Shown: positions 3,001-24,787 of the stretch, in pieces
How the letters are laid out: every line of letters starts with the position of its first letter
Position numbering within the stretch: the first letter of the stretch is position 1
DNA from: Thermoplasmata archaeon
Lineage (GTDB): Archaea; Thermoplasmatota; Penumbrarchaeia; JAEHCK01; GCA-020356005
Reading direction: 5' to 3'
Length of the DNA: 27,176 nucleotides
Assembly: GCA_020356005.1 (NCBI GenBank)
Contig: CP070629.1
Span: 829,558-856,733 of the forward strand
Notes under the pieces: model-generated
What the model was told of the DNA's origin: nothing
The model's input: only the letters and a program-made list of their open reading frames with translations
Database searches by the model: none
Translations under genes and position numbers: made by a program

Positions 3001-6000
3001 TTGAATAAAGAATATACATCCGGTGTGCAGAGCATACTATCATATGCTGGTTCAAAAGGCGGATATGAGATCAACTTAAATCAAACATCTTCAAATGCAC
3101 CAAACCAGATCGAGTTCTCGATTTCACATAATTCCTCATGGCACCACATCTCCGGTATGTCGCTGGAAGTGAATAAATGGTACAGGATCACTGCGATTCT
3201 GAACGATACGGAAGCTTCACTCTATGTGGGGTGGGAGGAGACCAAGAAGAAGCGCAGGAGTGAGGTTACCATACAGGTGGATGAACTGCAGGGTAAAATC
3301 GAGCTCGGCGGGATTTCTTTCAGTGATACCTCCTTGACCATCGGCGGCTCGAAGTTGGATACAACCAGAAATATAGAGATGTATATTGATGATTTTATTC
3401 TGACCAATGATGTGCGGCTCCCGCAGGAATACACCGAGGGTCATCCCGAGGACGGTGTCAACTGGGTCAAACGAGTTGGTAAATGGATCGCCGACTCTGG
3501 CATCGTATTCGTGAACACAAGGTACAGTCCCTTCACCGCCGTTGGCAATACAGATAAAAACTGGCCGTACAACAGGATTTCATTGGGAGCCGAGGGCTTC
3601 GGAAATATTCTGGAAACACGCTCAGTGGACGCCACAATATACAAGGATACATGGCTGGAGAATATCAAAACCGACAAAACACCCGAAGCGGCAAATATTC
3701 AAACAATATTGAGCGCGTGGGGCATTCCCTTTCCGGATTCTTTTGAGAGCGCTCAAACCTATATGACTTTGGACTCCGAGCTTGAACCTTTCTGCATACC
3801 GCTTTATAAAACGGCTGATAATGAAATTACCCATGCAATGATATTCTATGGTAAGGGAGCCATAATGTATAACGGCCTGAATAACCCCGACGCCGCCCTC
3901 ATTGCCGGCACTGCGGGTTGGTATACAGCCAAGAATATCCAGCCGCTGTATTTCATCGACTGTTCTGATGCACCCAAATCCTCAAGCAGTAAAGATTACG
4001 TGACGGAGCTGAAGAGCTCGTTTGATAAATTACAGGCGGATACGGGTATTCAATTCTATTATATTACTATCTCCAGCACCGACCAATTCTATCAATTGAT
4101 CAACTCCAACGTCAGGGATATCATTGTGGTGAACACGCACGGAGAATACCTGCCAATGCCGGCAAATTACATCAGCGGTGCATGCGTGGACGATAAAACG
4201 AATGCACTCCTGGGATTCGAGGAGGGCAGTGATATCAGCGCCTTCGATATCTCTGGCAATTACAATGACGGATTGATCGTCGGCGCTACATGGAGCACCA
4301 ATGCCCATTACGGCGATTATGCACTTGATTTCGACGGCAACGATTTTGTCGTCCTGACGCGTACGCCCAAGCTGTCGCCGAAAACCTTTACTATTGAATG
4401 CTCCGTTTATCTGAAGCAGGATTATGATAACAAGTCTGCAGCAATTATCTCAAACGAATTCCATCGTGATTCAGAACCGGGTGAAGAATACACGCATACT
4501 TACGGATATTCTCTTTACATTAATTCCAATTATACTACATTAAACAGACTGGTATTTTCATTGGGTACAAAACTGCCTGAAGTGGAGCCTCTTTATTTCG
4601 ACAGTCTGGAAAAGGAGCGGTGGTACAGGCTGGCTGCTACTTACGACGGCAGGTATATGAAGCTTTATGTCAACTATGAGGAGGTAGCTTCCAAGGTAGC
4701 GTACGGCCTCCATCCCGAAACGCTCAATAATCTGCAGATAGGTAAATGTCCCAGATACGATTACCCGATAAATGCAATAATAGATGATGTGCGGATATCG
4801 GAGGGCGCGTTATCACCTGACCAGATGCTAATAGATGTTGTGTCTCATAAGTTATGTCTGGAGGACCTGAATAGGTGGATTTCAGAGAGTAGTATTATCT
4901 GGACCAATATTGAGGGCTATGATTTCCTTTACCTGGGTTTAAAAGATCAGGACTGGCCGGATGACAGAGTCAACATTGGCTATGACGGCCTCAGTGAGTT
5001 TTCAGAGATCGGACTGCCGCCGCTTGAACTCAATACCAGATCAAACACATGCACTCTGACAGACGTTGGCGATAAAATCGATACCGATCTGGCCAGTATG
5101 ATTTTGAAATCCAGCTTCCAGAGCACTGCAAATATACCTGCCTCATACGATATGTTCACTATTCCCATCTATTCGAATGACAACGCTGTTTCGCACGGGG
5201 TGATACCCATCGGTAAGGGTAAGTTCATCCATACCGGCACCTACGATGCAGATCTGGTTGCTTCAACTGCCGCATGGTTTTTCACGAAAGGTAATGTCCA
5301 GATGATTTTCCTGGTGGACATCCCCGCAACCGTTGGCGGTACCGACCCTCTGGTTGTGGAATCCCAGCACCCTTATCCCACCAGGTTCGGAACCTCCGAG
5401 AATCTTATTGATAACCCCGGTGCGGAATCCGGCAGCATGTCGGGCTGGAAAGTCCTATTACACGGAGGTAACGGCTGGAGGGTACAGGGCGGCAGCTACG
5501 ACGGCGAAAAGCACTTCAGGACATCTTTTAACTGGTGCAAGCGTTATCAGGAGATCGATTTACTGGCAGAGGGGTACACCACCGATGAATTGAATGCTAA
5601 GCCCACCATCTATGCAGAGGAATGGTTCCACGGGTCATGGCCGAACTACGGTGATTACTACTACCTGAAAGTGGAGCTCCGCGACGCTAACCATAAAGCC
5701 ATCTCAACCTATAATTCCGGAGTACAGCGTGCAACGAACAGCTGGCAGAAGTTATCTCATACCTTCTCAGAGTACGGAGCCGGTGTGCGCTATATCTACT
5801 GGGAGGACGGCGGTGACGATGCGGAATACTGGTGGGGATATTACGGTGTAATGATCGACGGTGCGTTTTTGACCATTGACACCGCCGAGCTGGATGATAC
5901 CTGGGTTTTTTACAAGCCCGATGTGAGCAGGATCAGGGTGCATTTCGAAAAATACGAGATAGGTTCCACCGGAGATTACATCAAGGTCCTGAATAAGAAC

Positions 6001-9000
6001 GATTGTGAGCTCGCCAGGTACTCCGGTTTCGATTCCTCAGGAATGTGGACACCGTGGTGCGAAGGCGATACTGTCAAGTTGAAAATGGTAACCGGTTCCG
6101 GCCGGCACTACTGGGGTTTCAAGGTAAATAAGATCGAATATCTGACCGACGGGGTCTCCCCCATTCATCCCTACGGTAAAGCCGAGCTGATAAATAAATT
6201 GACCAATCTTGAGAACACCATGGACACCATCTGCATATTCAATGAAATTACTTCAACCGCCGAATTTGAAAAATTGGTAGAAAGCCGTCTAGAATCGCCC
6301 ATGGTCATCAATTTGCACGGCGATGCGGTGCCCGTCCCTGATTCTTATTTAACCGGAGGTGCCAGCGCCACCATACCGCCGCTGGGCTATTCGCCGGGCG
6401 GTGTAAAAGGCGAATATTACGACAACGAGGGTTTCACGAACCTGAAGGAGACCCGTGTGGACAACGAAATAAATTTCTACTGGAAATACGGCAGGCCTGT
6501 GGGTTCCGTCCATGGTGATACATTCAGCGTTAGATGGACCGGAATGCTGAGAGTCGATTTCTCAGAGGAATATACCTTCCATGTCCAGACAGATGACGGC
6601 ACCAGGTTCTGGATCGACAAGAACATGGATGGTGATTTCGACGATGCAGAAGAACTTGTAATCGATACCTGGAAGCTCCAGGCACCCACCTGGCATCAAG
6701 GTAAAATAAAGCTTACTCCCGGGTTCTATAATATCAAGTATGAATATTACGAGCATTACGGCTATGCGGTGGCAAAGCTGTTCTGGAGCTCGAAAAACAT
6801 TAAAAAGTCGGCGGTACCCGGCGAGAACCTCTATTCAAATCTGGCAACGCCGGCGGGCTACACCTCCGGCGGTCTTGAGGGTGAATATTATGATAATGCC
6901 GATTTAAAATATTTGAAGACAAAAAAAGTTGATTCAACAATCAATTTTAACTGGGGTACGGAAAGCCCGGATGCGGCCGTGGACCCTGATACATTATCGA
7001 TCAGATGGACGGGCATGGTAAAAATCGACGAGACGGGTGAATATGAGTTCTCGGTTAACACCGATGACGGGTCGAGGCTGTGGGTGAACAATCAGCAGAT
7101 CATCAATTCATGGAAGGACCAGTCCGCGCCCACTGAGTATTCCGGTAAGATCTCCTTTACGAAACCCGGTTTTTACGATATCACCTACGAATACTTCAAG
7201 AATACCGGGAGCGCTACGGCACAGCTATACTGGAAAACTCCATCCATGACGCAGGATGGTGAGCAGAAGGTAATCATTCCCTCCGATCATTTATTCAACC
7301 GCGGCGGGATATTCAGATACGCACAGGAATGGCTGAACGAGCTGGGCGATTGGGTTGCGCAGAACGGTGTGGTATATGCCAACACCAAGGATTACCCGTT
7401 CCAGTACGCCATAATCGATAACCCGCCGCCCGACAGCGGCAATCTCTGGTTCATCGGCGAAGAGGGTTTTTCGGAGTTTTTATCACCGCGCTCAGAAAGT
7501 GTAACGCTTGCACGGTACGAAGAAGGGCTCGGGATGGGCAACCTGACCCCCAACGGAAGAGCGCTCCGTGATTACCTGCCTGCGCGTACATTACCGAATT
7601 ATGTGACCGATGTACCCTACCCGCTGCCCTCAGACTATGACTGTATTCCCATCTTCCGCGACAAGGACAACAGGGATATTACCCACGGTATTATTCCCTT
7701 CGGAAGGGGTGCGTACATCCACTGCGGCGGATTCTCGGTGGATGCCTTAACCGCCATGTGTTTCATGTATTCATCTAAAAGAGACGATATGCGGTTTATC
7801 GGCGAGGTATATTACAAAGGCGAAACCGTCTGGACACAGGTACAGGTTCGCAACGATTATCCAATGGAAATGACATATGATTTTGAGCTGGTAACCCATT
7901 TCCCGGAGGAGGGGCTGCGGTCCAGGCGGATGACGGATTCGGAGATCGTTACTCTGCAGCCCGGCGAGGAGAAGACCATATACCTATCGTGGACGCCCAT
8001 CCAGCCGGATAAGATCGGTAAGTACAGCCTGGTAGTCCAGGTAATCGATCTGGAACGGCACACACTGGTAGAGATCTGGGGTAACGATATAGAGAACGAG
8101 TCTATTTCCATTAGCGTGGAGGTGGGAGCTTATATTTCGCAGCTTAAGACCAGCGATTACCTGGGATATTTCGATACTGTTGAAGTTGAGGTTACCATAA
8201 CGAACGAGATGTATATAGATAATCTATTTATCGTCAGCGGTATTTTCCAGAACAAAATCAACAAACATGTTTACTGGACGGAGGAGGAGGAACTTCCGGA
8301 GTATGAAGCCGAGGGTGGTATGGATACTACAGTGACTGTTGTATGGCATCCCTCCCAGCATAACTATCCGAACCAGACTTTTGAGCTCGGGATCTACCAG
8401 GGTACCATATTCTTAGAGGATGTTGCCAGTGCTTACTGCATACCCGATAAAAGTTATAAGACAGGTGAGCCGAAATATTTCAGGGTGAAGAAGATCATAG
8501 ATCAGAGCTCCACGGAATTCCGGATCGTGGGCCAGCTGGAAATCAATTTCCCGAAGGATATCGGGACATGGTCCATCAGCTACCACGGCGAGCTGGGCCC
8601 GTACTTCCCAATCAACCCGCAGGTCCGTGATGTGGTGCGCGTGTTCGACCCCGAGTACGATATCTGGATACGCCGCGACAGCCGGCTGGAGCTGGAGCCA
8701 GAAAGAGAGCCAGGCGGCATGATAGGCTACTGGAAGTTTGATGAATCTGTATGGACCGTGGACGCCGGCCAGGTTACCGATTCGTCGGGCAACGGGCACC
8801 ACGGCACCGCTTATAACGGTGCAAATACGGTACAGTATTCAAGATTCGGTCGATCAGCTGCCTTCAACGGGCAGAATTATGTTGTGATACCGGCCCATGA
8901 TGACATCAATGTTGGTAATAACAATGCGAACTTCAGTGTGGAATTCTGGTTCTTTTTAAAGCAGGGTCCCATCCGTTATTGGCGCAACATAATGCACAAG

Positions 9001-11744: not shown

Positions 11745-11778
11745 TATTATGGTAAATATATATAATATTGTGGTAAAT
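11745..11778 (+). promoter_or_regulatory. Candidate operator/promoter of the VapBC-like pair: two 13-nt direct repeats (TATTATGGTAAAT / TATTGTGGTAAAT) 21 nt apart within an A/T-rich TATA-like tract
   Basis: The repeats are at 11745-11757 and 11766-11778 and match at 12 of 13 positions. The second ends at the proposed TTG start. AbrB/SpoVT-type antitoxins typically autoregulate through repeated operators. Confidence 0.35.
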
Positions 11779-12029
11779 TGGAATTTATTAAAATCGACCA
11801 AACGGGTAAAATCTACCTGCCTAAAGTCATACGAAACAAAATAGATACCCGCAGTAAATATTTGGTAATTACCCTGCCGGACGGCGATGTGATTCTTCAT
11901 AAAATTAAAAGGTCAAAGAATCCTATACGTGATTTTCAGAAAGCATGGTCCACAGGAAAGGATATTGCAGAGATAAGAAAGGATATTCTGGATGAAGCCG
12001 TTAAACTTGCTGGAGAACGCGGTGATTGA
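11778..12029 (+). CDS. AbrB/SpoVT-fold antitoxin (VapB-like)
   Basis: The N-terminus (M)EFIKIDQTGKIYLPKVIRNKID...LVITLPDGDVILHKI is the swapped-hairpin AbrB/MazE/SpoVT motif. The gene is 83 aa, lies directly upstream of a PIN gene and overlaps it. The start is a TTG and is uncertain. Confidence 0.75.
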   Translation: MEFIKIDQTGKIYLPKVIRNKIDTRSKYLVITLPDGDVILHKIKRSKNPIRDFQKAWSTGKDIAEIRKDILDEAVKLAGERGD

Positions 12030-12408
12030 GTTGTATGCCGATACCGATTTTTTTCTGGCATTAATAAAAAAAGATGATTGGTTGAAGAAACGGGCGGAAA
12101 AACTTTATAAAAAACATCAAAATGAATTGTGGACATCTACATTGACTATTAAAGAATTAATGCTTTTAGCATATCGTGATAATAAGGATGTTACAGATAT
12201 TATCGAAAAAGCTTCCGCTTTAATGCCGGTTAAGGAGGTAGATATCGGTGTGGAAGGGCATATTGCCGCCAGCTTTTTAATTAAAAAATATAAAATGACG
12301 CCCTTCGATGCATTACATGCAGTTATTTGTGATAATGATTCAATTATCAGTTCAGATAAAAAATATGATTTGATAGGGCTCAATAGAATTACGTTAGAAA
12401 AAGAATAG
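12022..12408 (+). CDS. PIN-domain ribonuclease toxin (VapC-like)
   Basis: It carries the N-terminal acidic motif YADTDFFLAL and the later FDALHAV and ISSDKKYD motifs typical of PIN domains. I prefer the GTG at 12022: GGAGAA lies 4-5 nt upstream, it overlaps the antitoxin stop by 8 nt, and the first conserved Asp falls at residue 7-9. The ORF-track ATG at 11992 is the alternative. Confidence 0.75.
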   Translation: MIELYADTDFFLALIKKDDWLKKRAEKLYKKHQNELWTSTLTIKELMLLAYRDNKDVTDIIEKASALMPVKEVDIGVEGHIAASFLIKKYKMTPFDALHAVICDNDSIISSDKKYDLIGLNRITLEKE

Positions 12409-12532
12409 ATAAAACTGAGATTGGGAATCCGAACCAATTTTTCTCCAAATTTATAAAAACAACAAAGAATTTAATAGTCTATAATGCAATAATGTGGGTA
12501 ATCTTCCGATTATATTCATGGAGCTCTTTGTG

Positions 12533-14665
12533 ATGAAAATCAAGATCAACCGGATATTGTTATTGATTATTGCATTCATATTGATCTTCGCCGCGGTTGG
12601 CAGCGCTGTTATTTACAGATTCTATTTGCAGCCTGAGGAGGAGGAGGCGGAGACGCTCAAAATCGGTGTGCTGCTGCCCCTGAGCGGCCCCGAAGCTGTT
12701 AATTCATATGAGGTGCTGGATTGGGCTGCGGGCAATATCAATTCGCAGGGCGGAATAAAAGAATATCAAATCGAGCTGGTGTACAAAGACACCTATAACC
12801 ATGACCTGGCATTGCTGGCAGATGAGTTCATACAGGACGAATCCATTAAAATCGTGATCGGGCCGGGCACAAGTTCAGGTGTGTTCGATATTGCGCCTAT
12901 GTTCATTGCCAATAAAAAAATTCTTATCAGTGCATTTTCCACTGCAGCCGATGTATTCAACGCCTTCGGCGGTAAGAACTACATATGGCGCACCTGCCAA
13001 TCCGATGTTGCACAGATACGAACCATTCTGCATATACTCGACTCCAGAAATGTACAGAAAATATCGTTGATGTACGAGAACTCGGTTTACGGGAAGTCCT
13101 TCTATGATTGGACCGGTTTTTTTTCGCTGGAACTGGGAATAGAATTATTGAATCTGGTGGAATTCGAGTACGGGCAGAGCGATTTTTCCGAGGATGTGAA
13201 AACTGCTCTGGAGGGTGATCCCGACTATATCGTTTGTGTCGCATTCTCATCGGATGTAGTGGAGATCAAGAAGGAGCTGGATTTGACCGGCAGCTCAGCC
13301 AAGCTCTTCCTCACGGACGCAGGCGAGACGCCGTATTTGATCAGCGACCTAGGACAAGCAGCCGAGGGGCTGGAAGGTACCACCCCCTCTGCAGATCCCG
13401 CTGCGGGTTTCGAGGCAGTTTATCAAACCGAGCTTGGAAACCCGCCCAACAATATAGCAGCCACAACCTACGATGCGTTCCTGCTCGCACTATATACCCA
13501 CGCCAGACAACTTCATACGGGCGGCTCGGAGGGATTAGATGAATCCATAAAAAAAGTTGTTAGTGGTAACGATACGAAAGTGGGCTGGAGGAAAGAGGAT
13601 GTGGGAGCTGCCGTAGAAATGATTTTGAAAGGAGAGCTCCCGGACATCTCAGGCGTTTCGGGGCCATTGGAATTCGATTCCGAATTCGGCTGCGATCCCC
13701 TTGAAACCTTCTTCAATCACTGGCAGGTATCGGGCGGCGAGTTTCAAAGCCAAGATTCGATCAGTTCGGCTGCATCCTTACATGCAGGAGCAGTTAAATC
13801 AGGTGCTTCCGCATGCAGAACTTCGGGCAGCGCTGAAATTGGTAAAATAGAGGACACAACCGGCACAACGAACGGTCAACTCGCTGCCAGGAAGGATTCC
13901 TGGGCCGTAATTGTCTCTACCAGCACAGACTGGGACAATTACCGTCACCAAGCAGACGCTCTTGCTGTTTACAATATGTTGAAAACCAACGGTATGAGCG
14001 ATGATAAGATTATATTGTTAACGGTGGACGACATACCTGACCATGAGCGTAACAAAAAGCAAGGAGACATACACCACGAGATTAGTGGTACAAATCTCCG
14101 GTTGGATGCAGAGATCGATTATTCTGGTAATGATGTTACCTCCAAGATCTTCCGAAATGTATTAACAGGTAAAAAAACCGCCAGGACACCCACCGTGTTG
14201 GAATCCGATGAGAACAGCAATGTGTTTGTGTATATAGTAGACCACGGCGGCCAGGGCACCATACCCTTTGATAACGGCGGAACACTAAAGGCAGATACAT
14301 TGAAGAATTCTATAGTCGGTATGGACAATGACAATATGTTCCGGCAGATGTTTGTTATTATCGAGACATGTTTTTCTGAGAGCATGACCGCCGATATCGA
14401 GACCCCCGAAGTTGTTTTTTTGACCTCCGCAGCAGAGGACGAGCCCTCATTTGCTGCGAATTACGATTCTGAGATCGGGGCATGGCTGGCGGACGACTGC
14501 ACCTACCAGGTGGTTTCCACACTATCGGAGAATAAAGATATTTCCATAATGGAACTGTATGATGATACATATCCCAAGATCACCGGGTCGCACGTAAGAT
14601 TAAAAAACTATAACAGCTTCAGTAATGTTGAGAGCACGCCGGTAAGCGATTTCATCATGCCGTAA
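12533..14665 (+). CDS. Membrane-anchored fusion protein: type-I periplasmic binding protein (LivK/ANF-receptor-like) domain + C13 legumain-family cysteine peptidase domain
   Basis: The N-terminus MKIKINRILLLIIAFILIFAAVGSAVIY is a signal anchor. LKIGVLLPLSGPEAV...GGI...IELVYKDT...KIVIGPGTSS is the PBP1/Peripla_BP_6 pattern. The C-terminal half matches legumain block by block, including the His and Cys of the catalytic dyad: WAVIVSTSTDWDNYRHQADALAVY...DDI...DYSGNDVT..F.NVLTG...VFVYIVDHGG...MFVIIETCFSESM...SHV. The start at 12533 has GGAG 8 nt upstream. The ORF track begins at the GTG at 12494. Confidence 0.85.
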   Translation: MKIKINRILLLIIAFILIFAAVGSAVIYRFYLQPEEEEAETLKIGVLLPLSGPEAVNSYEVLDWAAGNINSQGGIKEYQIELVYKDTYNHDLALLADEFIQDESIKIVIGPGTSSGVFDIAPMFIANKKILISAFSTAADVFNAFGGKNYIWRTCQSDVAQIRTILHILDSRNVQKISLMYENSVYGKSFYDWTGFFSLELGIELLNLVEFEYGQSDFSEDVKTALEGDPDYIVCVAFSSDVVEIKKELDLTGSSAKLFLTDAGETPYLISDLGQAAEGLEGTTPSADPAAGFEAVYQTELGNPPNNIAATTYDAFLLALYTHARQLHTGGSEGLDESIKKVVSGNDTKVGWRKEDVGAAVEMILKGELPDISGVSGPLEFDSEFGCDPLETFFNHWQVSGGEFQSQDSISSAASLHAGAVKSGASACRTSGSAEIGKIEDTTGTTNGQLAARKDSWAVIVSTSTDWDNYRHQADALAVYNMLKTNGMSDDKIILLTVDDIPDHERNKKQGDIHHEISGTNLRLDAEIDYSGNDVTSKIFRNVLTGKKTARTPTVLESDENSNVFVYIVDHGGQGTIPFDNGGTLKADTLKNSIVGMDNDNMFRQMFVIIETCFSESMTADIETPEVVFLTSAAEDEPSFAANYDSEIGAWLADDCTYQVVSTLSENKDISIMELYDDTYPKITGSHVRLKNYNSFSNVESTPVSDFIMP

Positions 14666-14811: not shown

Positions 14812-14844
14812 ATTAGCATTATAAAATCAATAATAAATCTTTTT

Positions 14845-16284
14845 TCATCGCTCCCTGTATCCCATCTGCTCGCGAACTGTGGGCGGTTTGTATTTCGATT
14901 TCTCAAGATCGAATTTTGCCGTGTATGCCATTTGATTTAACGACTCCGCCAGGAACTCGAACTCGTCACCGGTATTGACCTCAATTTTGTGTTCAAGCTG
15001 TTTCTTCTGCATTGCGTCTGCACCATCTTTAAGTAGAAAAATCGGTCTGGTGATTGACCTGCCCACCAGTATGGACAGAACAGAAATTACAGCAAGAGCA
15101 ATTATGACAAAAAGAATGGATATGTTGAACGCCTCACCCAGCTGTTCGTCGATATAGTCGCTGGCGTTCCCTGTGGCATTTGTTATTTTACCTTCGATCT
15201 CCACAGCGGGTGCGATTATTTCGGCAATGGGCATAACAAATGCGACGCTCCAGCCGGTGCTCTCTATCGGCGCGTAAGCGAAATATTTCTCACCCTCCTC
15301 CAGTTCACACCGACTGATCCCAGAATTGCCCGTTGTCATATCCTCGCCTATGGCTTTTAAATCCGGGTTCGTACTCTCCAGCAGATTCTCAAGCTCAAAG
15401 GATTCGTCCCACATTTTATCCTCAGCCTGCAGGCCCGGCCGGGCGATTATATTACCGTTATTGTCCACAAGTATCCCGTAACCGGTTTCACCAACCTGCG
15501 GTTTAATAATATCGGAATTGATGGTTTTTATGGTAATATCCGCCGCCACCACCCAGAAATAATCTGTGCTGGTGGAGTACACAGGTGCGGAGCATGTTAT
15601 CATCAGCTCGTTCGTACCCACATCCAGGTACGGGCTCGTCCAGGATATCCCGCCCGACTCTACCGCATTTGTATACCAATCCCGCACCCTGGGATCGTAC
15701 GTTGGATCTATTCCGGTATCCCACGGATAAATCCTGGCAAAACCGGAACCGGTCCCGATATAAATCCATTCTACATAGGGATCGTTGGAATAAGTGGGTA
15801 TGAAAATATTATCGAGAACACTTGAAAGGTCCAGTTCAGCTCTAACATTATCTGCAGACACACCGGGGGCCAGCACATATACGGAATCTTCGAAAATATC
15901 TTCAGGCTGCTCGTTTTGTGAATATGAATATTTATATTGAAACGATGATGAATTATCGATAAGAGTGGCGGCGAATTCAGACACTATGCTTACTTCCGAT
16001 TCTATCTTTTCGAACAGCATATTTCCGAAAGCTGCTTGACCTTTTGCCAATCTTACCAGGTTATCCTCGGCTTGTGACTCTAGAGCAGTTGTGCTGTCGT
16101 CCACGGCGCTGTCGCCAAGTTCTGTGCACCGGTCAATAGTATAATCACCGCTCTCCTCTAAATTATCTAGAGAGAAATATCCGAAGAAAATTAATGAAAT
16201 CAGAGAAAATACCAAGAAAACTATCAGGATTTTTGTTCGTATCTTCATTTTGATTCTTGATTTCTGTGTCATAAAAACCACCAT
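14845..16284 (-). CDS. Membrane sensor with extracytoplasmic Cache-like domain and HAMP domain, no output domain (paralogue of the N-terminal two-thirds of the adjacent PP2C phosphatase)
   Basis: It has TM1 (ILIVFLVFSLISLIFFGYF), a ~330-aa periplasmic region, TM2 (ISILFVIIALAVISVLSILV) and a HAMP-like stretch (RPIFLLKDGADAMQKKQLEHKIEVNTGDEFEFLAESLNQMA). By eye it is collinear and roughly half identical with residues ~30-470 of the 17112-19286 product. It ends about 30 aa after HAMP. Confidence 0.8.
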   Translation of the reverse strand: MVVFMTQKSRIKMKIRTKILIVFLVFSLISLIFFGYFSLDNLEESGDYTIDRCTELGDSAVDDSTTALESQAEDNLVRLAKGQAAFGNMLFEKIESEVSIVSEFAATLIDNSSSFQYKYSYSQNEQPEDIFEDSVYVLAPGVSADNVRAELDLSSVLDNIFIPTYSNDPYVEWIYIGTGSGFARIYPWDTGIDPTYDPRVRDWYTNAVESGGISWTSPYLDVGTNELMITCSAPVYSTSTDYFWVVAADITIKTINSDIIKPQVGETGYGILVDNNGNIIARPGLQAEDKMWDESFELENLLESTNPDLKAIGEDMTTGNSGISRCELEEGEKYFAYAPIESTGWSVAFVMPIAEIIAPAVEIEGKITNATGNASDYIDEQLGEAFNISILFVIIALAVISVLSILVGRSITRPIFLLKDGADAMQKKQLEHKIEVNTGDEFEFLAESLNQMAYTAKFDLEKSKYKPPTVREQMGYRER

Positions 16285-16290
16285 ACTTAA

Positions 16291-16626
16291 CTACTTAAGC
16301 ATTTTTTCTGCATCTTTAACATTACTGCAGCATTTAAAAAGAGAGGTAAAGCCTGTTATATCAAAAACCTCCTTCACCTGAGGTTGCAGTCCCACAAGCA
16401 CAAGCTCACCATCATTCTTCTTCGTCTCCTTCAAACCTGCCAGTAGAACTCTTAAACCGGCACTGCTGATGAAATCTACATCTTTCATATCGATAATAAG
16501 CTTAAATTTCTTATCGGAAATGATCGAATTCAACCTGGATTCGAGATCCAGAGCCGTATTGGCATCGATTTTACCCTTTACAATTACAAGGCCCAGGTCT
16601 CGTTTCGTTTTAAAATCCAATTCCAT
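16291..16626 (-). CDS. STAS-domain anti-sigma-factor antagonist-like protein (RsbV/SpoIIAA family)
   Basis: LVIVKGKIDANTALDLE...IIDMKDVDFISSAGLRVLL...LVLVGLQPQVKEVFDITGF is the classic STAS pattern and includes the phosphorylatable Ser in DFISSAG. I chose the ATG at 16626 because AGGAGGA lies 5-6 nt upstream. The track start at 16656 would overlap the upstream gene. Confidence 0.85.
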   Translation of the reverse strand: MELDFKTKRDLGLVIVKGKIDANTALDLESRLNSIISDKKFKLIIDMKDVDFISSAGLRVLLAGLKETKKNDGELVLVGLQPQVKEVFDITGFTSLFKCCSNVKDAEKMLK

Positions 16627-16645
16627 ACTAGTTCCTCCTGATCGG

Positions 16646-17071
16646 CTATTTACCAATATATTTGATCATTGTTAATTCATTCCCTGCATCTGCATCAAAG
16701 GTATAATCCAGTTTATCGATATAAGCTTTCATTAAGAAAATTCCGAGCCCGCCTATTTTTCGCTTCTCCAAAGGCGCTTTCGTATCCGGTTCGGGTACAC
16801 TTTTTGGATCGAAGGACTTGCCCTTATCCCTGATAATGATCTTGAATTCATTGCCGGAACCGGAGCAGTCAATAATAATCGGCCCAGCTGTTCCGGGATA
16901 TGCATGTTTCATTATATTGGTACATGCCTCGTCCACTGCCACCTGCACCTCAAATATCTCCTTTTCGGACCCGAACCCGAGGCTCTTCATGGCATCCGCT
17001 ATAAAGTCCCTGACCTCAGGGAGATTTTCAAGTTTACTCGCAACTTCAAGATGTAATTTCTGATCTTCCAT
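16646..17071 (-). CDS. RsbW/SpoIIAB-like serine protein kinase (HATPase_c, anti-sigma-factor family)
   Basis: N-box EACTNIMKHAY, G1-like IIRDKGKSFDP and G2 IGGLGIFLM. The 141-aa size and the position directly upstream of the STAS gene fit this family. Confidence 0.85.
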   Translation of the reverse strand: MEDQKLHLEVASKLENLPEVRDFIADAMKSLGFGSEKEIFEVQVAVDEACTNIMKHAYPGTAGPIIIDCSGSGNEFKIIIRDKGKSFDPKSVPEPDTKAPLEKRKIGGLGIFLMKAYIDKLDYTFDADAGNELTMIKYIGK

Positions 17072-17111
17072 GTGTATTATCCATCCCGGATCTTTGATTA
17101 AGATATATAAT

Positions 17112-19286
17112 TTATTTAACCTTTAATATTATCATAGTGATATCGTCAGCCTGGGGTTCGCCCCTGGTAAACTCTTTAACATCAGCTTTTATTTTGTCAA
17201 CGATCTTTTGAGGGGTTAGTTTGCGATTGCTCGCAAGCAGATCTTTCAACCTTTTTTCACCGTACTGCGCCCCCTTATCGTTCAGTGCTTCCGTAACTCC
17301 ATCGGTAAAAAGTACAACGATATCCCCTGATGAAAGCTCCACCTCAACCTCTTCAAGCTCTATGCTTTCAACTACCCCCAGTGCGATTCCCTTTGCTTTT
17401 AACAGCACAATCTCACTGGTATCTTTGCGCAGAACCAGAGGAGGGTTATGGCCGGCGTTAACATAAGTTAAAATTCTTTTCTTTGAATCGAAAATAGCAT
17501 AGAACAGCGTTACGAACATGGAAGCCTTCGAGTCCTCGCAGATCAGCTTGTTCGCGCTGGTAATGGCCCTTGCAGCCGTTGGATCTTGCACGGTGTTCGC
17601 ACGCACAAGCGTCCGTGACAGCGCCATGAACAGAGCCGCGGGCATGCCCTTACCGGATACATCGGCTATTGCAAGGCCCCATTTATCCTCTGAGATATGT
17701 ATGAAATCATAGAAATCGCCGCCGATCTCCTTGGCGGATTGATTGAATGCCGCAAGCTCGATACCTTCTATATCAGGCACATGCTCGGGTAATATGCTCT
17801 GCTGGATCTTCTGGGCGATATCCATTTCCTTCATCAACCGCTCCTTCTCTGCAGTTGTGTGCTGCAGTTGATCCATATGCCGGTTCAAATCCAGCGCCAT
17901 TTTATTGAAGGAATCCGCGAGATCCTCTAGTTCATCGCCGGTCTTTACATCAACTCTATGCTCAAGATGACCCTGCCCGATGGTGTTGGCGCCCTTTGTC
18001 AGGGTTTTAATGGGCTTGGTGATTTTTCCAGAAAGTACATAAGCCAGGGCGATAACTGCAATAATTATAACAATAAAAATTATAATGAACATATTCTGCA
18101 GATTCAGGATCTTATCCTCAATGCTTTCCTCTGTATCCTTCGTGGCCCTGTCTATTTGACCCTTGGTTTCGGTTGCCGGTGCGATTATCTCGGAAACTGG
18201 CATAACGAAACCAACGCTCCATCCCGTGCTGTTGATAGGTGCATAAGCAATATATTTCTCCCCATCCTCAAAGCTGCACCTGGCAACGCCGCTGCCGCCA
18301 AGTGTCATTTTTTCGGCTATCGCTTTCAGCTCTGTATTATTGCTCTCCAATAAATTCTCGGTTTCAAACGATTCGTCCCACCTGTTATCGCCCGCAGCCA
18401 GACCCGGGCGGGCGATAACAGAGCCTGACTGATCAATTAACAAAGCGTAACCCAGTTCGCCAACCTTTGTATTGATAATATCGGAATTGATGGTCTCTAT
18501 GGTAACATCGAGTCCGATGACCCAGAACATGTCATCCTGAGGTGAATTAACCCGCTGCGAGCAGGTCACCATCAGGCCCGTGCCGGCAACATCGATATAC
18601 GGCTCGGACCAGGATATTCCCTCGGAGCTCTCTGCATTCTTGTACCATTCGCGCTCCCTGGGGTCGTATGTTTCGGGGATGCCGGTGCACCATGGGTAGA
18701 TCCGTATCATACCCGATTTGGTGCCGATGTAAACCCAGGTCAGGTGCGGGTCGCTTGAATAGACCGGTATGAAGATCTCGTCCATGTTGCTTGATAGATT
18801 CAGTTCTGATTGAATAGAATCGTTGTCAACATCCGAAGCAAGAACATAGACTGAGGTCGAATAAATATCATCGGGCGTTTCGTTTTGAGAATAAGAGTAC
18901 CTGTAGGAGGTCATTGATGAATTATACATGAGGTTATATGCGAAATCGCTCATGATATTGGCTTCGGCTTCTACTTTTTCAAATAAGGTGTTGCTAACCT
19001 CCGCTTGGGCCGCCGCCATATCCATGAGATGCTTTTCGGCCTGCTGCTCCAGTGCAGTTGTGCTGTCGTCAACCGCCTGCTCGCCCAGGTCCTTGTTGCG
19101 GTCGGATGAATAATCGCCCATCTCGTTTATGTTCCAGAGTGCAATGAATCCAAAAATGGGAAGAGCTATAAGTGATAGAATCAAAAATGAAACCAGTATT
19201 TTGGATCTTATCGTAAAGTGCTTTGATTTTCCAGCAGCCATATCTTTACTTCCAGTTAGCTTTGAATTTGATGAATGGAAATCCAT
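17112..19286 (-). CDS. Cache-HAMP-PP2C (SpoIIE-type) serine phosphatase, RsbU-like partner-switching input
   Basis: The N-terminal TM/Cache-like/TM/HAMP part is followed by QKIQQSILP...GGDFYDF...GLAIADVSGKGMPAALFM...FTDGVTEA...DDITMIILKV, a textbook SpoIIE/PP2C domain. The ATG at 19284-19286 overlaps the upstream CDF stop (TGATG). The track uses the TTG at 19289. Confidence 0.88.
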   Translation of the reverse strand: MDFHSSNSKLTGSKDMAAGKSKHFTIRSKILVSFLILSLIALPIFGFIALWNINEMGDYSSDRNKDLGEQAVDDSTTALEQQAEKHLMDMAAAQAEVSNTLFEKVEAEANIMSDFAYNLMYNSSMTSYRYSYSQNETPDDIYSTSVYVLASDVDNDSIQSELNLSSNMDEIFIPVYSSDPHLTWVYIGTKSGMIRIYPWCTGIPETYDPREREWYKNAESSEGISWSEPYIDVAGTGLMVTCSQRVNSPQDDMFWVIGLDVTIETINSDIINTKVGELGYALLIDQSGSVIARPGLAAGDNRWDESFETENLLESNNTELKAIAEKMTLGGSGVARCSFEDGEKYIAYAPINSTGWSVGFVMPVSEIIAPATETKGQIDRATKDTEESIEDKILNLQNMFIIIFIVIIIAVIALAYVLSGKITKPIKTLTKGANTIGQGHLEHRVDVKTGDELEDLADSFNKMALDLNRHMDQLQHTTAEKERLMKEMDIAQKIQQSILPEHVPDIEGIELAAFNQSAKEIGGDFYDFIHISEDKWGLAIADVSGKGMPAALFMALSRTLVRANTVQDPTAARAITSANKLICEDSKASMFVTLFYAIFDSKKRILTYVNAGHNPPLVLRKDTSEIVLLKAKGIALGVVESIELEEVEVELSSGDIVVLFTDGVTEALNDKGAQYGEKRLKDLLASNRKLTPQKIVDKIKADVKEFTRGEPQADDITMIILKVK

Positions 19287-20260
19287 CAATCTTTCTTACC
19301 CCGGCTCTTTTTATATTTCATGGGGATCAGAATGAACCGCATTTCGGGAAAGTGCTCCTGCAGGTGTTTTTCGATTTTGCCCTGGAGCTTACTTATTTCT
19401 TTTAACGACATGTCCTTCTTTAAATAAAGTTCTATCTCAATGAAGCGCTTTTTGCCGCTGCTGCGCGTGTAGATATTACCTATATTCTCGTAACTTTCGT
19501 ATTGTTGTGCCAGAACACCCATGATCTTCAGCTGGTCTTGTTCCGGCAGCGGAAAATCTATGAGGACCTTGAAGTTACCCACCGTCAATGTAATTCCGCA
19601 GTAAAGCATGTATAACGCGAGGATCAATGATATTATCGGGTCAAGTAAATAAGCAAGGGTCTCCTGCCCCGAAGATACGAGCACAAACCCGAAGCTTATA
19701 CCGATCAGGACCCCAATATCGAACAGTGTCGTTACTTTGAAATTGATATAGTACGAATGTACCATTGGCGATTCGCTTTTCTGCATCAGCTTTGATGATC
19801 TTCGGAACAGCCATATACTGCGCAGCAGTGAAGGTACCAGCGGTATCTGCGCCAGCGAAAAAGATATGAATTCGGGCGGCGACATAAACCTCCAGGCTGC
19901 GGTGTATATAATGAACAGAGATGTGGGTATAGCCAGCGCACCGTACAGGAAACTCGAGAAATTCTCTAACTTGCCCGTCCCGTAAGGGAACTTCAAAATA
20001 TTGGATTTCTGGATGGTGCGTATGGATTGGAACGCAAATACCTGCACGATCAGAGACAGCCCGTAATCGAAGGCGATTGTATAAATGGTAATGGCATTAG
20101 AGAAATACCCGAAAATGAAATACAATATTATAAAAGGAATAATAGAAAGGAAGGCGATATCAACCAATCTTTTTAGGTCCTCCAGCTCCTGCTCCTCATC
20201 TGTCTTGGCTTCAGATGTACCCATTTCACCTTCTTTGCCTTTAGTAGTTATAAATCTCAT
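19286..20260 (-). CDS. Cation diffusion facilitator (CDF) family transporter, divergent metal-site residues
   Basis: It has six predicted TM segments, the FPYGTGKLENFSSFLYG motif after TM2/3 (compare FPFGHGRAE in CDFs), and a C-terminal alpha/beta dimerisation-type domain (IYTRSSGKKRFIEIELYLKKDMSLKEISKLQGKIEKHL). The positions that usually carry H/DxxxD in TM2 and TM5 read DYGLS and TTLFD. The start is uncertain between 20260 and 20224. Confidence 0.7.
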   Translation of the reverse strand: MRFITTKGKEGEMGTSEAKTDEEQELEDLKRLVDIAFLSIIPFIILYFIFGYFSNAITIYTIAFDYGLSLIVQVFAFQSIRTIQKSNILKFPYGTGKLENFSSFLYGALAIPTSLFIIYTAAWRFMSPPEFISFSLAQIPLVPSLLRSIWLFRRSSKLMQKSESPMVHSYYINFKVTTLFDIGVLIGISFGFVLVSSGQETLAYLLDPIISLILALYMLYCGITLTVGNFKVLIDFPLPEQDQLKIMGVLAQQYESYENIGNIYTRSSGKKRFIEIELYLKKDMSLKEISKLQGKIEKHLQEHFPEMRFILIPMKYKKSRGKKD

Positions 20261-20462
20261 CTCCCTGATTTGACTCTATTAAAATGATTATTGTTGTATT
20301 CTCACCAGCCTGAAATGGAATACCATTACATTTTTTATAATTTTTGGATGTGAAAACATAAAATGTAACTCAAAAACCAGCTTTCATTAATTATAAATAT
20401 TACAATACAATTCCAAAAACCATCAAAATCAATCAATTCAAATGCACTTTCAAATTGATAAT

Positions 20463-20600
20463 GGGATATATTAAGTTAGGGGTGGAATCCCCTAACAACC
20501 CCTCTTTCTTTATCTTTTTGGGTGATGCCGCAGGCATCACCCATAGAGAAAAGAAAAGAGAGGGGTTATAGGGGAGATTCTTCTCCCCTATTAATATCCC
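20463..20600. repeat. ~140-nt nested palindrome (central 10-bp stem GGGTGATGCC/GGCATCACCC, long imperfect arms, two flanking hairpins)
   Basis: The palindrome is symmetric about nt 20531. The arms are AACCCCTCTTTCTTTATCTTTTT and ATAGAGAAAAGAAAAGAGAGGGGTT. The side hairpins are TTAGGGGtggaaTCCCCTAA and ATAGGGGAgattcttcTCCCCTAT. The outer arms are GGGATATATTAA and TTAATATCCC. Confidence 0.8.
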
Positions 20601-21685: not shown

Positions 21686-24055
21686 TTAAACTGCCTTCAG
21701 TGCGTGCTCCCAGCACTGCCTGTAGCTGTCGATTGCTGAACCGTAATTTTCATTCATTATGAATTCGTATGAATCCTGCATCTTTTGCTGCGCCATTGCA
21801 ATCTCATGGTCTACCTTTTTGCTTGCACCCGCATTTAAAACTGCTTCATCCAAGGCGGTTTTGGCCAGCAGCCAATCAGAGTAAACCAGATTTATTCTGG
21901 CATTAATACATGCCTGAACTACGGAATTCGGTACATTTTTATGGTTCATCAATTCCTCCAGCTTCTGCACCGCCTGCTTTTCCAGCGAGAAAACCTTATG
22001 ACCGTGCTTCGGATCGAGATGATCCAGATCTTCCCACAGTTCTGAATCCAAACTAGCTTCAATAAGCTCGATTATCTTGTCAAGTTTACTATCGATTTTC
22101 TTATCGCCGGTTTTGGCGGATTCAAGATAGTATGCGGTGTAATCTTTGAACGTTTCAGGCGGTATGCTTACCGCGTTGTTTACAACGGCTACAATTGTGG
22201 ATTGTGAATAGGTGTTACCCGCTGCATCATACACGCGGATCTCGATTCGGTTGAATCCATCGTTCAAATCACTGGTATCAAGTGGATAATCAAAGCCGAA
22301 ATTTGAAGATGCAGGTAAATTGATAGTACCGACCAGATTGTCGCCCACATAAATTTCAGCCTTCTCCAGGCAGGTATCGTCCATTGCTACTGCCGATATT
22401 GTTACCGCACCCTGGACGTTTTCAAGATACTTGGGTGATTGTATGCGCAGCCCCGGTGCAGTGTAATCCACAGACACCTGACCGGTTCTTGAAAACTCCA
22501 CCTCGGTTTCGCACGGTATAGCGCTGTGGCCGTTCTCATCCTCGGCGATTATCATTATTTCTATATCAGTGGGTCCTTTCACATGGTTCTTAAATGCACT
22601 TATAGGTATATTCACGGACCAGGTTCCATCACCGTCGGGATCGCTCATTTCATAGTTATCATAGTCTATATGCTCGATATATTCATAGGTTTGATAATTC
22701 GGTGTTAATGGTATAAGAGGTATTATACAGGCAGTCACCTTGGATATAGCTGCCATAGCATCGATCTCGGCTTCGACGGGTATTACCTCCAATTCTGGTG
22801 GGATGGGCCATATAAACGATCTCTTTTCGATTACATACTCAATCCATGGAATGCGAATGATCGGGCCGCCCATGTAGATATGTGCCGCAAAATCACCGTC
22901 GCCGTCATGTGGCAGATACCCGCTGAAAGCAGGTGTATCCCAGCCGTGGCCGACCCCGTCTCCGTTATCATCCAGGAGTGGATGATATGAGTTCAGCGTA
23001 CCGGCTACATATTGGCTGCCGGTATTGAAAGCCGCCCCAAGTGAATCCCCTGACTTAATCGCCGGCCAGTACTCGTTGCTGAACTTCTCGTAGTACGGTG
23101 CAGGAGCGCCGCCGCTGTTTTCATCTGCATTGCTGGATGTAATCGTAATTCTTCCATCCCCGGTGAGGTCATCGATGAAACTGCCGCTGTGACAGCCCAT
23201 GTACCATGTATAGACATCCGCATCCGTGTCTGTTTCCAGGTCGTCTATCCAATCCTCCAGGTCCCACGCCCAGACCTGATCGTCGGTGGGTGGGTCGTCT
23301 ATACAGAACTTATTGACATTGCCGTGATCGAACATAATAATGAATAACGGTTCGTGCTCGCTCACTTTCCCTGCCGCCCAGGTATCAATCGCAGTCTCCA
23401 TTGTAGCACTGGTAGCCATTCCATCCACCCTCCAGTTATTCCAGCTGTTAAGATAATATACCCTGCTGGATGGATAACCGATATCGAGTAGATCATCAAA
23501 AATTTGGTTACAGGCTGCGTCTATCATAAACTGCATATCATCATTATTGTTACCCGCAACGAGGAGTACATAACCCATACCCCGGACTCCAAATGTATGT
23601 CTTCCTTCCAGAACGTCATCAAGAATACTTTCAGTTACAATGGTATATGTCCCGGGATCTAACTTCTCGGTTAAAAAGTTCGACTGCGAAACCATATTCG
23701 TCTCTGTATCACCGGAACCAACACACCACGTTTTAGCCTGCATCGGCCAGGGATTGTTTTTTACATAAGCTGGCGGGTAGACAACCTCGCCATCTTCATT
23801 GTAGATTTTAAATTTGGGCATTATGTCGAACATAATATCGGTTTTGCCTCTGTTGTTGATAAAAACCGATATATCTTCACCTTGTTTGTAATAAGGTTTG
23901 TTCGTGTAAACTTTTAACGGAGATATTATATCCTGGCTTATATCAGAGCTTAAAGCTTCTGAAGATACCTTCGTTGCCGGTAATGCAGCAAAACCTACAA
24001 AGACCAGCATTATGACTATACCAATATTTATTCCAATCTGAAAACCTGTTCTCAT
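21686..24055 (-). CDS. Secreted/anchored clan-CD cysteine peptidase (legumain C13 / gingipain-like His-Cys dyad) with Ig-like domains and a C-terminal helical domain
   Basis: The signal anchor is IGINIGIVIMLVFVGFAALPA. The protease core reads YVLLVAGNNND...PLFIIMFDHGN...VYTWYMGCHSGSFIDD followed by YHPLLDDNGDGVGHG, which I recall recurring in prokaryotic C13-like proteins. An Ig-like region follows (VTISAVAMDDTCLEKAEIYVGDNLVGTINL...IEIRVYDAAGNT). GGGAGG lies 7 nt upstream of the ATG. Confidence 0.75.
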   Translation of the reverse strand: MRTGFQIGINIGIVIMLVFVGFAALPATKVSSEALSSDISQDIISPLKVYTNKPYYKQGEDISVFINNRGKTDIMFDIMPKFKIYNEDGEVVYPPAYVKNNPWPMQAKTWCVGSGDTETNMVSQSNFLTEKLDPGTYTIVTESILDDVLEGRHTFGVRGMGYVLLVAGNNNDDMQFMIDAACNQIFDDLLDIGYPSSRVYYLNSWNNWRVDGMATSATMETAIDTWAAGKVSEHEPLFIIMFDHGNVNKFCIDDPPTDDQVWAWDLEDWIDDLETDTDADVYTWYMGCHSGSFIDDLTGDGRITITSSNADENSGGAPAPYYEKFSNEYWPAIKSGDSLGAAFNTGSQYVAGTLNSYHPLLDDNGDGVGHGWDTPAFSGYLPHDGDGDFAAHIYMGGPIIRIPWIEYVIEKRSFIWPIPPELEVIPVEAEIDAMAAISKVTACIIPLIPLTPNYQTYEYIEHIDYDNYEMSDPDGDGTWSVNIPISAFKNHVKGPTDIEIMIIAEDENGHSAIPCETEVEFSRTGQVSVDYTAPGLRIQSPKYLENVQGAVTISAVAMDDTCLEKAEIYVGDNLVGTINLPASSNFGFDYPLDTSDLNDGFNRIEIRVYDAAGNTYSQSTIVAVVNNAVSIPPETFKDYTAYYLESAKTGDKKIDSKLDKIIELIEASLDSELWEDLDHLDPKHGHKVFSLEKQAVQKLEELMNHKNVPNSVVQACINARINLVYSDWLLAKTALDEAVLNAGASKKVDHEIAMAQQKMQDSYEFIMNENYGSAIDSYRQCWEHALKAV

Positions 24056-24479: not shown

Positions 24480-24787
24480 TGCTGGGAGCAGATGGGCGAT
24501 TTACGCCGTCTTGGTGATGGTGAGGAAAGTCCCCACTCCTTTAAGCATGCGGTCCGGCGCAAGCCGGATGCCCGAGAGGGCAGGCTCTGGAGCAGAAACG
24601 TAACCTGTGGTGGTTATACTATGATTTACTTTCAAAGTGATGAGGTTCCCTCCGTTCAGGCTGAAACGGCCATTCCCCGCTGGTGCAAGTTCAAATGTAT
24701 CGGGATGACGTGCTTACAGACCGGAAGGTAGAACGCATAGTCCAATATCGCCTGAAACAGAATGGGGCTTACAACCTGCACCCAGCA
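24480..24787 (+). ncRNA. rnpB: RNase P RNA (compact, type A-like; probably archaeal)
   Basis: Universal CR-I GAGGAAAGUCC is at 24522-24532 and CR-V ACAGAAUGGGGCUUAC is at 24757-24772. Together they form helix P4 (AAGUCCCC / GGGGCUU). Terminal helix P1 pairs UGCUGGG (24480-86) with CCCAGCA (24781-87). There is an internal CCGGC-GCAA-GCCGG tetraloop hairpin. Oligo-T follows immediately. Confidence 0.9.

Follow-up and report, generated by a model that had tools for sequence, protein, structure and literature searches.

A partner-switching operon in a Thermoplasmata archaeon and its candidate client, a cation diffusion facilitator-like protein

Sigma-independent partner switches are already established in bacteria. 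In the SiaABCD system of Pseudomonas aeruginosa, the phosphatase SiaA and the kinase SiaB set the phosphorylation state of SiaC, which in its unphosphorylated form binds and activates the fourth protein of the operon, the diguanylate cyclase SiaD (PMC7278518, PMC7647112). In the CapK/CapS and VapK/VapS/VapC systems a GHKL kinase phosphorylates a conserved serine of the STAS protein, and the STAS protein itself contacts a non-sigma client, which is released upon phosphorylation (PMC13373217). PP2C/SpoIIE domains have also been noted in archaeal genomes (PMC5847659, PMC12088040). No functional study of archaeal RsbW/RsbV/PP2C genes was found in the literature searched. In archaea, which lack sigma factors, such genes still bear the annotation of anti-sigma regulators. 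We analysed a locus of this kind in a stretch of 27,176 nucleotides from a Thermoplasmata archaeon (assembly GCA_020356005.1, contig CP070629.1, forward-strand positions 829,558 to 856,733), hereafter the window, where genes for a sensor phosphatase, an RsbW/SpoIIAB-like kinase and a STAS protein lie between a cation diffusion facilitator (CDF)-like gene and a gene for a stand-alone Cache-HAMP protein (Table 1).

We propose that these genes encode a sigma-independent partner switch that acts on the CDF-like membrane protein of the same operon as its client, a reading to which we give an even chance of being right. Extracellular amino acids would be the signal perceived by the Cache receptor; the stand-alone Cache-HAMP protein may bind them too, and it would probably form mixed dimers with the sensor of the phosphatase or compete against it. 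The signal would pass through the HAMP domain to the PP2C domain, which would take off the phosphate that the RsbW-like kinase adds to Ser55 of the STAS protein. Depending on its phosphorylation state, the STAS protein would be bound to the kinase or else to the CDF-like protein, on the cytoplasmic domain of the latter, and would thereby switch the activity of the CDF-like protein. The mechanism is modelled on the action of SiaC on SiaD and of VapS on VapC, and appears to be the best reading. The contact of the STAS protein or the kinase with the CDF-like protein, the sign of the regulation, the ligand and the CDF substrate are all presumptive.

The locus and its relatives offer a specific, testable client candidate, a membrane protein that is a conserved genomic partner of the switch; it is the first concrete candidate for what archaeal partner switches control. 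If the proposal is correct, sigma-independent switching, as in SiaABCD, HsbA and CapS/VapS, would extend to direct control of a transporter and to archaea. In the literature searched no paper joins "partner switching" or "STAS domain" with "cation diffusion facilitator".

The triad and its archaeal host

All five proteins of the operon match Pfam domains above the gathering cut-offs. The sensor phosphatase (dCache_1, HAMP and SpoIIE, E 3e-55) has a first transmembrane (TM) segment at about residues 26-54, an extracytoplasmic dCache_1 domain, a second TM segment at about 391-424, a HAMP domain at 418-467 and the PP2C/SpoIIE domain at 533-723. Its best solved relatives, with which the PP2C domain aligns, are SpoIIE (5mqh, 3t91, 5ucg), RssB (3eq2) and SiaA (6k4e). 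The metal-binding aspartates of the PP2C family are present in four motifs (GGDFYD 522-527, ADVSGKG 541-547, FTDGVTE 660-666 and ADDITM 713-718), which align with those of SpoIIE 5mqh.

The kinase (HATPase_c_2, E 1e-29) has an N box EACTN at residues 48-52, a G1 box RDKGKS at 81-86 and a G2 box GGLG at 107-110, all three of which align residue for residue with its best solved relative, RsbW 6m36, where the G1 box reads ADEGDS. The best NCBIfam model for the kinase is also RsbW, with a score under its cut-off. The second-best solved relative is a protein of 304 amino acids deposited as 'SenB' (9qih, E 1.5e-5), which is matched in its C-terminal GHKL part only.

The STAS protein (Pfam STAS, E 3e-23) also passes the cut-off of TIGR00377, the model of the anti-sigma-antagonist superfamily, and its best solved relatives are 4hyl and SpoIIAA. 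Its predicted phospho-acceptor is Ser55 (codon 16464-16462) in the motif DFISSAGL, aligned with Ser58 of SpoIIAA and Ser56 of RsbV. It takes the place of the phosphorylatable Ser/Thr that partner-switching STAS proteins have at the start of helix 2, and every CDF-linked STAS protein has a serine where SpoIIAA has S58. The triad thus corresponds to the RsbU-RsbW-RsbV-like set named in a preliminary description of the window, with all catalytic and acceptor motifs intact; judged by these motifs it looks complete and catalytically competent. Since the equivalog models for RsbW, SpoIIAB, SpoIIAA and SiaA are matched only under their cut-offs, the three proteins are members of these families and not orthologues of a characterised system.

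The same three families, with the same catalytic and acceptor motifs, compose the RsbU/RsbV/RsbW-sigmaB and SpoIIE/SpoIIAA/SpoIIAB-sigmaF systems of Bacillus, and among solved structures RsbW, SpoIIE and SpoIIAA come first or nearly first as relatives of the window triad. The Bacillus systems act on a sigma factor, which is impossible in an archaeon; in addition, the window proteins score below the RsbW, SpoIIAB and SpoIIAA equivalog cut-offs and the phosphatase is a transmembrane Cache-HAMP receptor. SiaABCD shares with the window an operon-encoded sigma-independent switch, a membrane HAMP-PP2C phosphatase and a kinase/phosphatase pair acting on a small STAS-fold protein; among NCBIfam models the window phosphatase matches SiaA best, and the SiaA structure 6k4e is one of its solved relatives. 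The phosphatase is nevertheless not an SiaA orthologue, because it scores 89.8 bits on NF038263 against a cut-off of 700. Moreover, the client of SiaABCD is a diguanylate cyclase where we propose a CDF-fold membrane protein, the acceptor is Thr68 of the divergent SiaC instead of Ser55 of a canonical STAS protein, and the window has a dCache_1 sensor and an archaeal host. No GGDEF gene is present in the window operon, so that the likeness to SiaABCD is one of logic only.

CapK/CapS and VapK/VapS/VapC differ in other respects: their STAS proteins carry a winged helix-turn-helix (HTH) domain or a C-terminal extension, their kinases carry HTH-STAS extensions, their clients are DNA or a PIN toxin, and they work without a PP2C partner. 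None of the five operon proteins matched any family of the PADLOC models at E <= 0.001, and a defence system of the CapK/CapS type was rejected on this ground and because the STAS protein is single-domain and the kinase lacks an HTH domain.

STAS folds are also found as cytoplasmic accessories of transporters, such as the C-terminal STAS domain of SLC26/SulP proteins and MlaB on the MlaFEDB ABC transporter (PMC8256260). A weak match to the mlaB_1 model (E 3e-4, under the cut-off) was obtained for the window STAS protein, and the SLC26 and ABC transporter families are unrelated to CDF proteins. Neither SLC26/SulP STAS domains nor MlaB is known to be switched by an RsbW/PP2C pair.

The host is archaeal, as judged from the genes of the window: it contains a full-length archaeal RNase P RNA (RNaseP_arch, RF00373, 207 bits), the named relatives of its TrmI, a tRNA m1A methyltransferase, are all from Thermoplasmatales, Thermoplasmata or Thermoplasmatota metagenome-assembled genomes (MAGs) at about 50-54% identity, and the closest relative of the CDF-like and Cache-HAMP genes in the genome collection is a Thermoplasmata MAG, designated L001. 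Archaea lack sigma factors and use TBP and TFB to initiate transcription. As a consequence a sigma-factor client is excluded. In fact, no sigma-factor domain was found with Pfam in those open reading frames (ORFs) of the window that were scanned, and no sigma factor is available there as an alternative partner of the kinase. The preliminary description had reported no sigma factor at the locus, and had reckoned with their absence from the genome if the host were archaeal, and in both it was correct; the module would work like a partner switch but is not sigma-regulating.

Linkage of the CDF-like gene to the triad

The preliminary description had named the CDF-like operon partner as a candidate for the output of the switch, and had asked for its gene neighbourhood to be checked, with a lack of this linkage in related genomes as grounds for refuting the idea. 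A profile of the CDF-like subfamily yielded 57 loci in species-representative genomes and 79 in metagenomes, to which the contigs of individual homologues were added, and all ORFs of these loci were searched with profiles made from the window PP2C, kinase and STAS proteins. Among CDF-like proteins at least 55% identical to that of the window, the gene of 10 out of the 12 lineages has STAS, kinase or PP2C genes no more than 2.6 kb away (the window, L001, L068, L061/L069, L071, L058, L070, L002/L072, L065 and L063). The linkage is thus kept in most of the close clade and in a few bacteria, so that the refuting case did not arise, and this recurrence supports the candidacy of the CDF-like protein.

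The linked loci display at least seven gene arrangements. The order is CDF>Cache-HAMP-PP2C in the window and in L001, continuing in the window with kinase>STAS, and CDF>PAS-PP2C>kinase>STAS in L061/L069 and L068. In L058 the triad is convergent to the CDF-like gene (CDF> <STAS<kinase<PAS-PP2C), as is the STAS<kinase pair of L002/L072, where a PP2C gene was not found. The CDF-like gene comes last in L065 and L070, (5TMR-LYT-PP2C>)kinase>STAS>CDF, followed in L065 by a Cache-only protein, and in L063/L064 it is accompanied by the STAS gene alone (CDF>STAS, with a gap of 24 nt). Two bacterial loci have the whole set beside CDF-like proteins that are only 36-41% identical to that of the window: L018, from Desulfurivibrio, with CDF>Cache-HAMP-PP2C>STAS>kinase, and L118, with CDF>STAS>kinase followed at some distance by Cache-HAMP-PP2C. 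Fragments of the set are present in L079 and L023.

In L071 a STAS remnant lies upstream of the CDF-like gene and a convergent kinase/STAS pair is also present. The remnant (L071:158-331) consists of the C-terminal half only and lies 25 nt upstream of the CDF-like gene, and the convergent pair, which lies downstream, is intact. The triad next to the CDF-like gene thus seems to have undergone turnover or replacement.

The phosphatases of the linked loci carry Cache-HAMP, PAS-PAS or 5TMR-LYT sensor domains. Among the linked STAS proteins at least three sequence groups can be distinguished, those of the window and of L063 each standing apart from the main archaeal group and those of L018/L118 apart again. 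A STAS gene is present in every linked locus with visible flanks and is the sole partner in L063/L064, while the kinase is never an immediate neighbour of the CDF-like gene, except for a fragment in L023. Over all loci, 31 triad genes were counted in 590 kb within 3 kb of a CDF-like gene and 1 in the 692 kb further away.

It could be argued that this adjacency has no meaning, the genes being adjacent in one archaeal clade through common descent, and in the bacteria by chance or through transfer of a block. Most linked loci do belong to one CDF clade, with 55-90% mutual identity, and the contigs are short metagenomic fragments. We consider this explanation highly improbable, in view of the variation in gene order, orientation, sensor domain and STAS lineage among the linked loci, of the enrichment near the CDF-like gene, and of the two distant bacterial loci that repeat the association. 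Because the association survives rearrangement, inversion, exchange of the sensor and probably replacement of the triad, it points to a functional link and not to inherited synteny alone.

Several observations weigh against the CDF-like protein as the client. Its physical contact with the triad is a supposition. Two lineages of the close clade have no triad nearby, namely the Bathyarchaeota contig L003, which extends 10 kb to either side, and the population L067/76/77/94, and neither have most bacterial members of the subfamily. Two of the next-closest STAS relatives (about 50% identity), the ones that were looked up, do not adjoin a CDF gene, so that the window STAS protein does not belong to a CDF-dedicated clade. 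No fusion of a CDF-like protein with a STAS, kinase or PP2C protein was found among the best 150 representatives of the subfamily, from 1.84 billion proteins searched. Elsewhere the subfamily adjoins unrelated partners (EanB/EanA-like proteins, patatins and methyltransferases). Finally, the locus counts overstate independence, since many of the linked loci are phylogenetically related.

The unlinked STAS relatives, the many members without a triad and the lack of fusions are also points in favour of a client whose gene lies elsewhere (a transcription factor, an enzyme or a motility component, for instance), the CDF-like gene being co-expressed because the same physiological response requires its product, which would have no contact with the switch. 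In many bacterial partner switches the client is in fact encoded outside the operon. We regard this alternative as possible but rather unlikely. The linkage was kept through at least seven rearrangements, including the convergent loci L058 and L002/L072, where co-transcription is impossible, and one locus has the CDF and STAS pair only; neither would be expected from mere co-expression.

The CDF-like subfamily and its other neighbours

The CDF-like protein has six TM helices, a Cation_efflux domain and a C-terminal ZT_dimer domain. It passes the superfamily model TIGR01297 (101.5 against a cut-off of 82.35) and does not approach the equivalog models FieF, MntE, ZitB and MamB/M. The profile of its subfamily matches Escherichia coli YiiP with E 9e-25. 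An AlphaFold2 model (predicted local distance difference test score 87) has YiiP, ZnT7 and ZnT1 as top Foldseek matches, with probability 1.00 for YiiP and ZnT structures, and in this model the fold and domain order are those of the CDF family. The translation may start at Met13 (ATG 20224, after GAAGGTGA), as suggested by the fact that most homologues begin at that position.

The protein shares with YiiP/FieF-type CDFs, besides fold and domain order, a framework composed of GxGKxE after TM2 and the strand RTRxSGxxxFIxIxL in the C-terminal domain. The subfamily signature FPYGTGKLENFSS lies at residues 91-103 and the motif PYGTGKLENF is invariant in the subfamily. The subfamily is small, with about 40 representatives at 50% identity scoring above 200 bits among the 1.84 billion proteins.

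The metal sites differ. In an alignment of 106 non-redundant members of the subfamily to YiiP, the transport site A, which is DD-HD in YiiP, becomes D-S-N-T in the window protein, and the (H/D)xxxD pairs expected in TM2 and TM5 are lacking. D45 of YiiP corresponds to D65, which is D in 12 of the 15 members of the close clade and variable elsewhere; D49 corresponds to S69 (S, A or G in the subfamily, never D), H153 to N173 (N, D or S, never H) and D157 to T177 (S, A or T, and D once). The histidines of the regulatory sites are replaced as well: in site B, H71 by F91 (F or Y in the subfamily) and H75 by T95 (T), with I88 as the third window residue equivalent to this site, and in site C, H232 by G261 (G), H248 by E277 (E) and H261 by S290. 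The replacements at F91, T95, G261 and E277 are near-invariant across the subfamily, and the position equivalent to H261 is variable.

The preliminary description had called the metal site of the protein non-canonical on the basis of the motifs DYGLS and TTLFD. This is correct for the protein as a whole, the change being more extensive than was claimed, and for DYGLS (D65...S69). The second motif was misplaced, because the alignment with YiiP puts the TM5 site at NFKVT (N173...T177), and TTLFD (177-181) is off by one helical turn. According to the alignment all three zinc sites of YiiP are replaced across the subfamily, and it is unlikely that its substrate is bound as zinc or iron are in YiiP. 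The current automatic annotation of the subfamily is "cation/ferrous-iron efflux pump FieF"; a CDF subfamily unable to bind metal in the known way would bear on that annotation.

Further neighbours of the subfamily were found at other loci. In 25 bacterial loci the CDF-like gene abuts a gene with Rhodanese and Methyltransf_33 domains (EanB/EanA-like), the CDF-like proteins concerned being 31-36% identical to that of the window (e.g. L047:3566-7015, L031, L036, L044, L045, L125-L131, L134 and L142). The two genes abut or overlap, with a 4-nt gap in L047 and L134. The domains of the neighbour are those of a fused EanB/EanA anaerobic ergothioneine synthase; in L038, L046 and L131 they are split between two genes. 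A supposed family of 355 amino acids near bacterial CDF-like genes was rejected, as it consists of antisense ORFs inside the EanB/EanA-like gene. This pairing hints at a thiol-histidine betaine or a related compound, and not a metal, as the substrate of the subfamily.

A third recurrent and unrelated partner is a gene for a patatin-like phospholipase, which lies upstream of the CDF-like gene in 10 loci, with members at 42-45% identity. It is on the same strand, with an overlap or a 4-nt gap, in 8 of them (L006, L011, L020, L054, L082, L083, L087 and L137), and on the opposite strand, 1.5-2.1 kb upstream, in L007 and L009. The only fusion partner found for CDF-like proteins, among the same 150 representatives, is a C-terminal class I S-adenosylmethionine (SAM) methyltransferase, in proteins of about 577-588 amino acids (P0121; L004:290-2041; L078:1252-3015; L079:1643-2761). 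A separate methyltransferase gene directly follows CDF>STAS in L063 and is convergent in L066. That the linked and fused methyltransferases form one family is not convincing (19% identity, E 2e-4).

Bacterial members also lie within 3.5 kb of genes for PAS-GGDEF proteins, REC-sigma54 activators, hybrid histidine kinases and REC-PAS-HD proteins (L005, L021, L023, L025, L027, L029, L030, L089 and L131), which may mean that the subfamily is generally connected with signalling, or only that such genes are dense in those phyla. These neighbours, together with the replacement of all three YiiP sites, would suit a CDF-like protein that acts as an input, that is, as a membrane sensor or scaffold (transceptor) which reports the state of the membrane or cytoplasm to the kinase/STAS pair, the output being elsewhere. 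We consider such a role improbable, given that the phosphatases have sensors of their own (Cache, PAS, 5TMR-LYT), that the fold and the TM core are predicted well and are those of a normal CDF, and that the 25 loci with an abutting biosynthetic gene fit a transporter better than a sensor. Returning to the CDF-like protein as client, we put forward tentatively, as a doubtful but specific extension, that this small, previously undescribed branch without metal sites is a carrier or gate for a substrate that is not a transition metal, perhaps an organic cation or a thiol-histidine betaine, as the pairing with EanB/EanA-like genes hints, gated in archaea by an amino-acid-responsive phospho-STAS switch. 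In that case it would be the first client to be identified for a partner-switching module in archaea, and no transporter would have been shown earlier to be under an RsbW/RsbV/PP2C-type switch.

Predicted signal, operon layout and other features of the window

The fifth protein of the operon consists of dCache_1 and HAMP domains with TM segments at about residues 13-40 and 381-412, and only about 26 residues follow the HAMP domain. It is 55% identical, without gaps over 439 residues, to the sensor module of the phosphatase. The closest relative of the window STAS protein is in L146/L147, where the genes have the same order (PP2C, kinase, STAS, Cache-HAMP) and are 68% (PP2C), 54% (kinase) and 75% (STAS) identical to those of the window. 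The Cache-HAMP protein of L147, in the same position after the STAS gene, is 74% identical to the stand-alone paralogue and only 52% to the N-terminus of the phosphatase. The output-less paralogue of the preliminary description is thus real and has a conserved orthologue in the nearest relative; since that orthologue is closer to the paralogue than to the phosphatase, the stand-alone gene is a conserved one under selection. Its interpretation as a decaying duplicate was rejected, as the ORF is clean, there is no room for a PP2C remnant and the orthologue is more similar (74%) than the kinase (54%).

Sensors of the dCache_1AA type are recognised by the AA_motif, Y121-R126-W128...Y144...D173 in the numbering of PctA, located in the membrane-distal module (PMC8915833). 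The full motif is present in the phosphatase (Y207 R212 W214 Y230 D260), in the stand-alone protein (Y196 R201 W203 Y219 D249) and in the L147 orthologue, all of which match a regular expression with the published spacing that is matched by 2 of 20000 shuffled sequences. In the L001 orthologue F replaces the first Y, and the motif was not found in the bacterial CDF-linked phosphatases L018 and L118. Because both Cache paralogues carry the motif, extracellular amino acids are the predicted signal in the window lineage.

The operon is flanked by genes for two large secreted-looking proteins with Peptidase_C13 (legumain) domains, one of which is fused to Peripla_BP_6, of the type that binds the branched-chain amino acids Leu, Ile and Val, and the other of which has Big_7/Big_14 repeats. 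In L001 an ORF of 722 amino acids upstream of the CDF-like gene has nearly the same length as the plus-strand C13 protein, a comparison of length only. Secreted C13 peptidases and Cache domains predicted to sense amino acids suggest a protein-degrading lifestyle, and the fit between the predicted signal and this neighbourhood is only suggestive.

The five genes of the operon are packed on the minus strand exactly as first described, and the ORF listing and direct reading of that strand confirmed their limits to the base, together with the TGATG overlap, the gaps of 40, 19 and 6 nt and the AGGAGG hexamer. The TGA stop codon of the CDF-like gene (19288-19286) and the ATG of the phosphatase gene (19286-19284) have one A in common, and a TTG lies in frame with the phosphatase gene at 19289. 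The counterpart of this junction in L001 is a 10-nt gap, GAAGGTGGTG. The following gaps are of 40 nt between the phosphatase and kinase genes (17111-17072), 19 nt between the kinase and STAS genes (16645-16627) and 6 nt between the STAS and Cache-HAMP genes (16290-16285). Directly after the last stop codon comes an A/T-rich tract, a candidate for an archaeal terminator at the end of the operon, and a TATA-like box, AAAAATTATAAAAAA, is a candidate operon promoter. The predicted promoter and terminator are consistent with a single transcription unit, and we infer co-transcription of the five genes, and translational coupling.

Table 1. Positions of the operon genes, their control elements and other features in the window
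Feature	Positions	Strand	Size	Remarks
CDF-like gene	19286-20260	minus	324 aa	ORF listing and direct strand reading
Sensor phosphatase gene	17112-19286	minus	724 aa	ATG start
RsbW/SpoIIAB-like kinase gene	16646-17071	minus	141 aa	
Single-domain STAS gene	16291-16626	minus	111 aa	
Stand-alone dCache_1-HAMP gene	14845-16284	minus	479 aa	
TGATG stop/start overlap of CDF-like and phosphatase genes	19284-19288	minus		direct reading
AGGAGG, Shine-Dalgarno-like hexamer in kinase-STAS gap	16634-16639	minus		direct reading
A/T-rich tract with oligo-T runs (candidate terminator)	14815-14844	minus		directly 3' of last stop; direct reading
TATA-like box (candidate promoter)	20331-20345	minus		about 70 nt upstream of ATG 20260; direct reading
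Three-hairpin element	20470-20600			divergent intergenic region upstream of operon
Archaeal RNase P RNA	24484-24783	plus		full-length
Peptidase_C13 protein	12494-14665	plus		
Peptidase_C13 protein	21686-24055	minus		
Giant ORF	10-11541	plus	3843 aa	reaches left window end
83-aa ORF and PIN-domain protein	11778-12408	plus	83 and 138 aa	overlapping

Upstream of the operon, the divergent intergenic region contains a three-hairpin element made of nested inverted repeats with arms of up to 31 nt and a core palindrome GGGTGATGCC...GGCATCACCC. Its minimum free energy as RNA is -70.8 kcal/mol (z -8.4). It is present in one copy in the window, has no Rfam match, and could be the site of a regulator, a small RNA or a palindromic mobile element.

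At the left end of the window, the giant ORF that begins at base 10 encodes a Laminin_G_3 domain close to the C-terminus, and hardly any other part of it can be recognised. After it, the ORF of 83 amino acids, which has no Pfam match, overlaps the start of the gene for the PIN-domain protein, and the two have the layout of a VapBC-type toxin-antitoxin pair.

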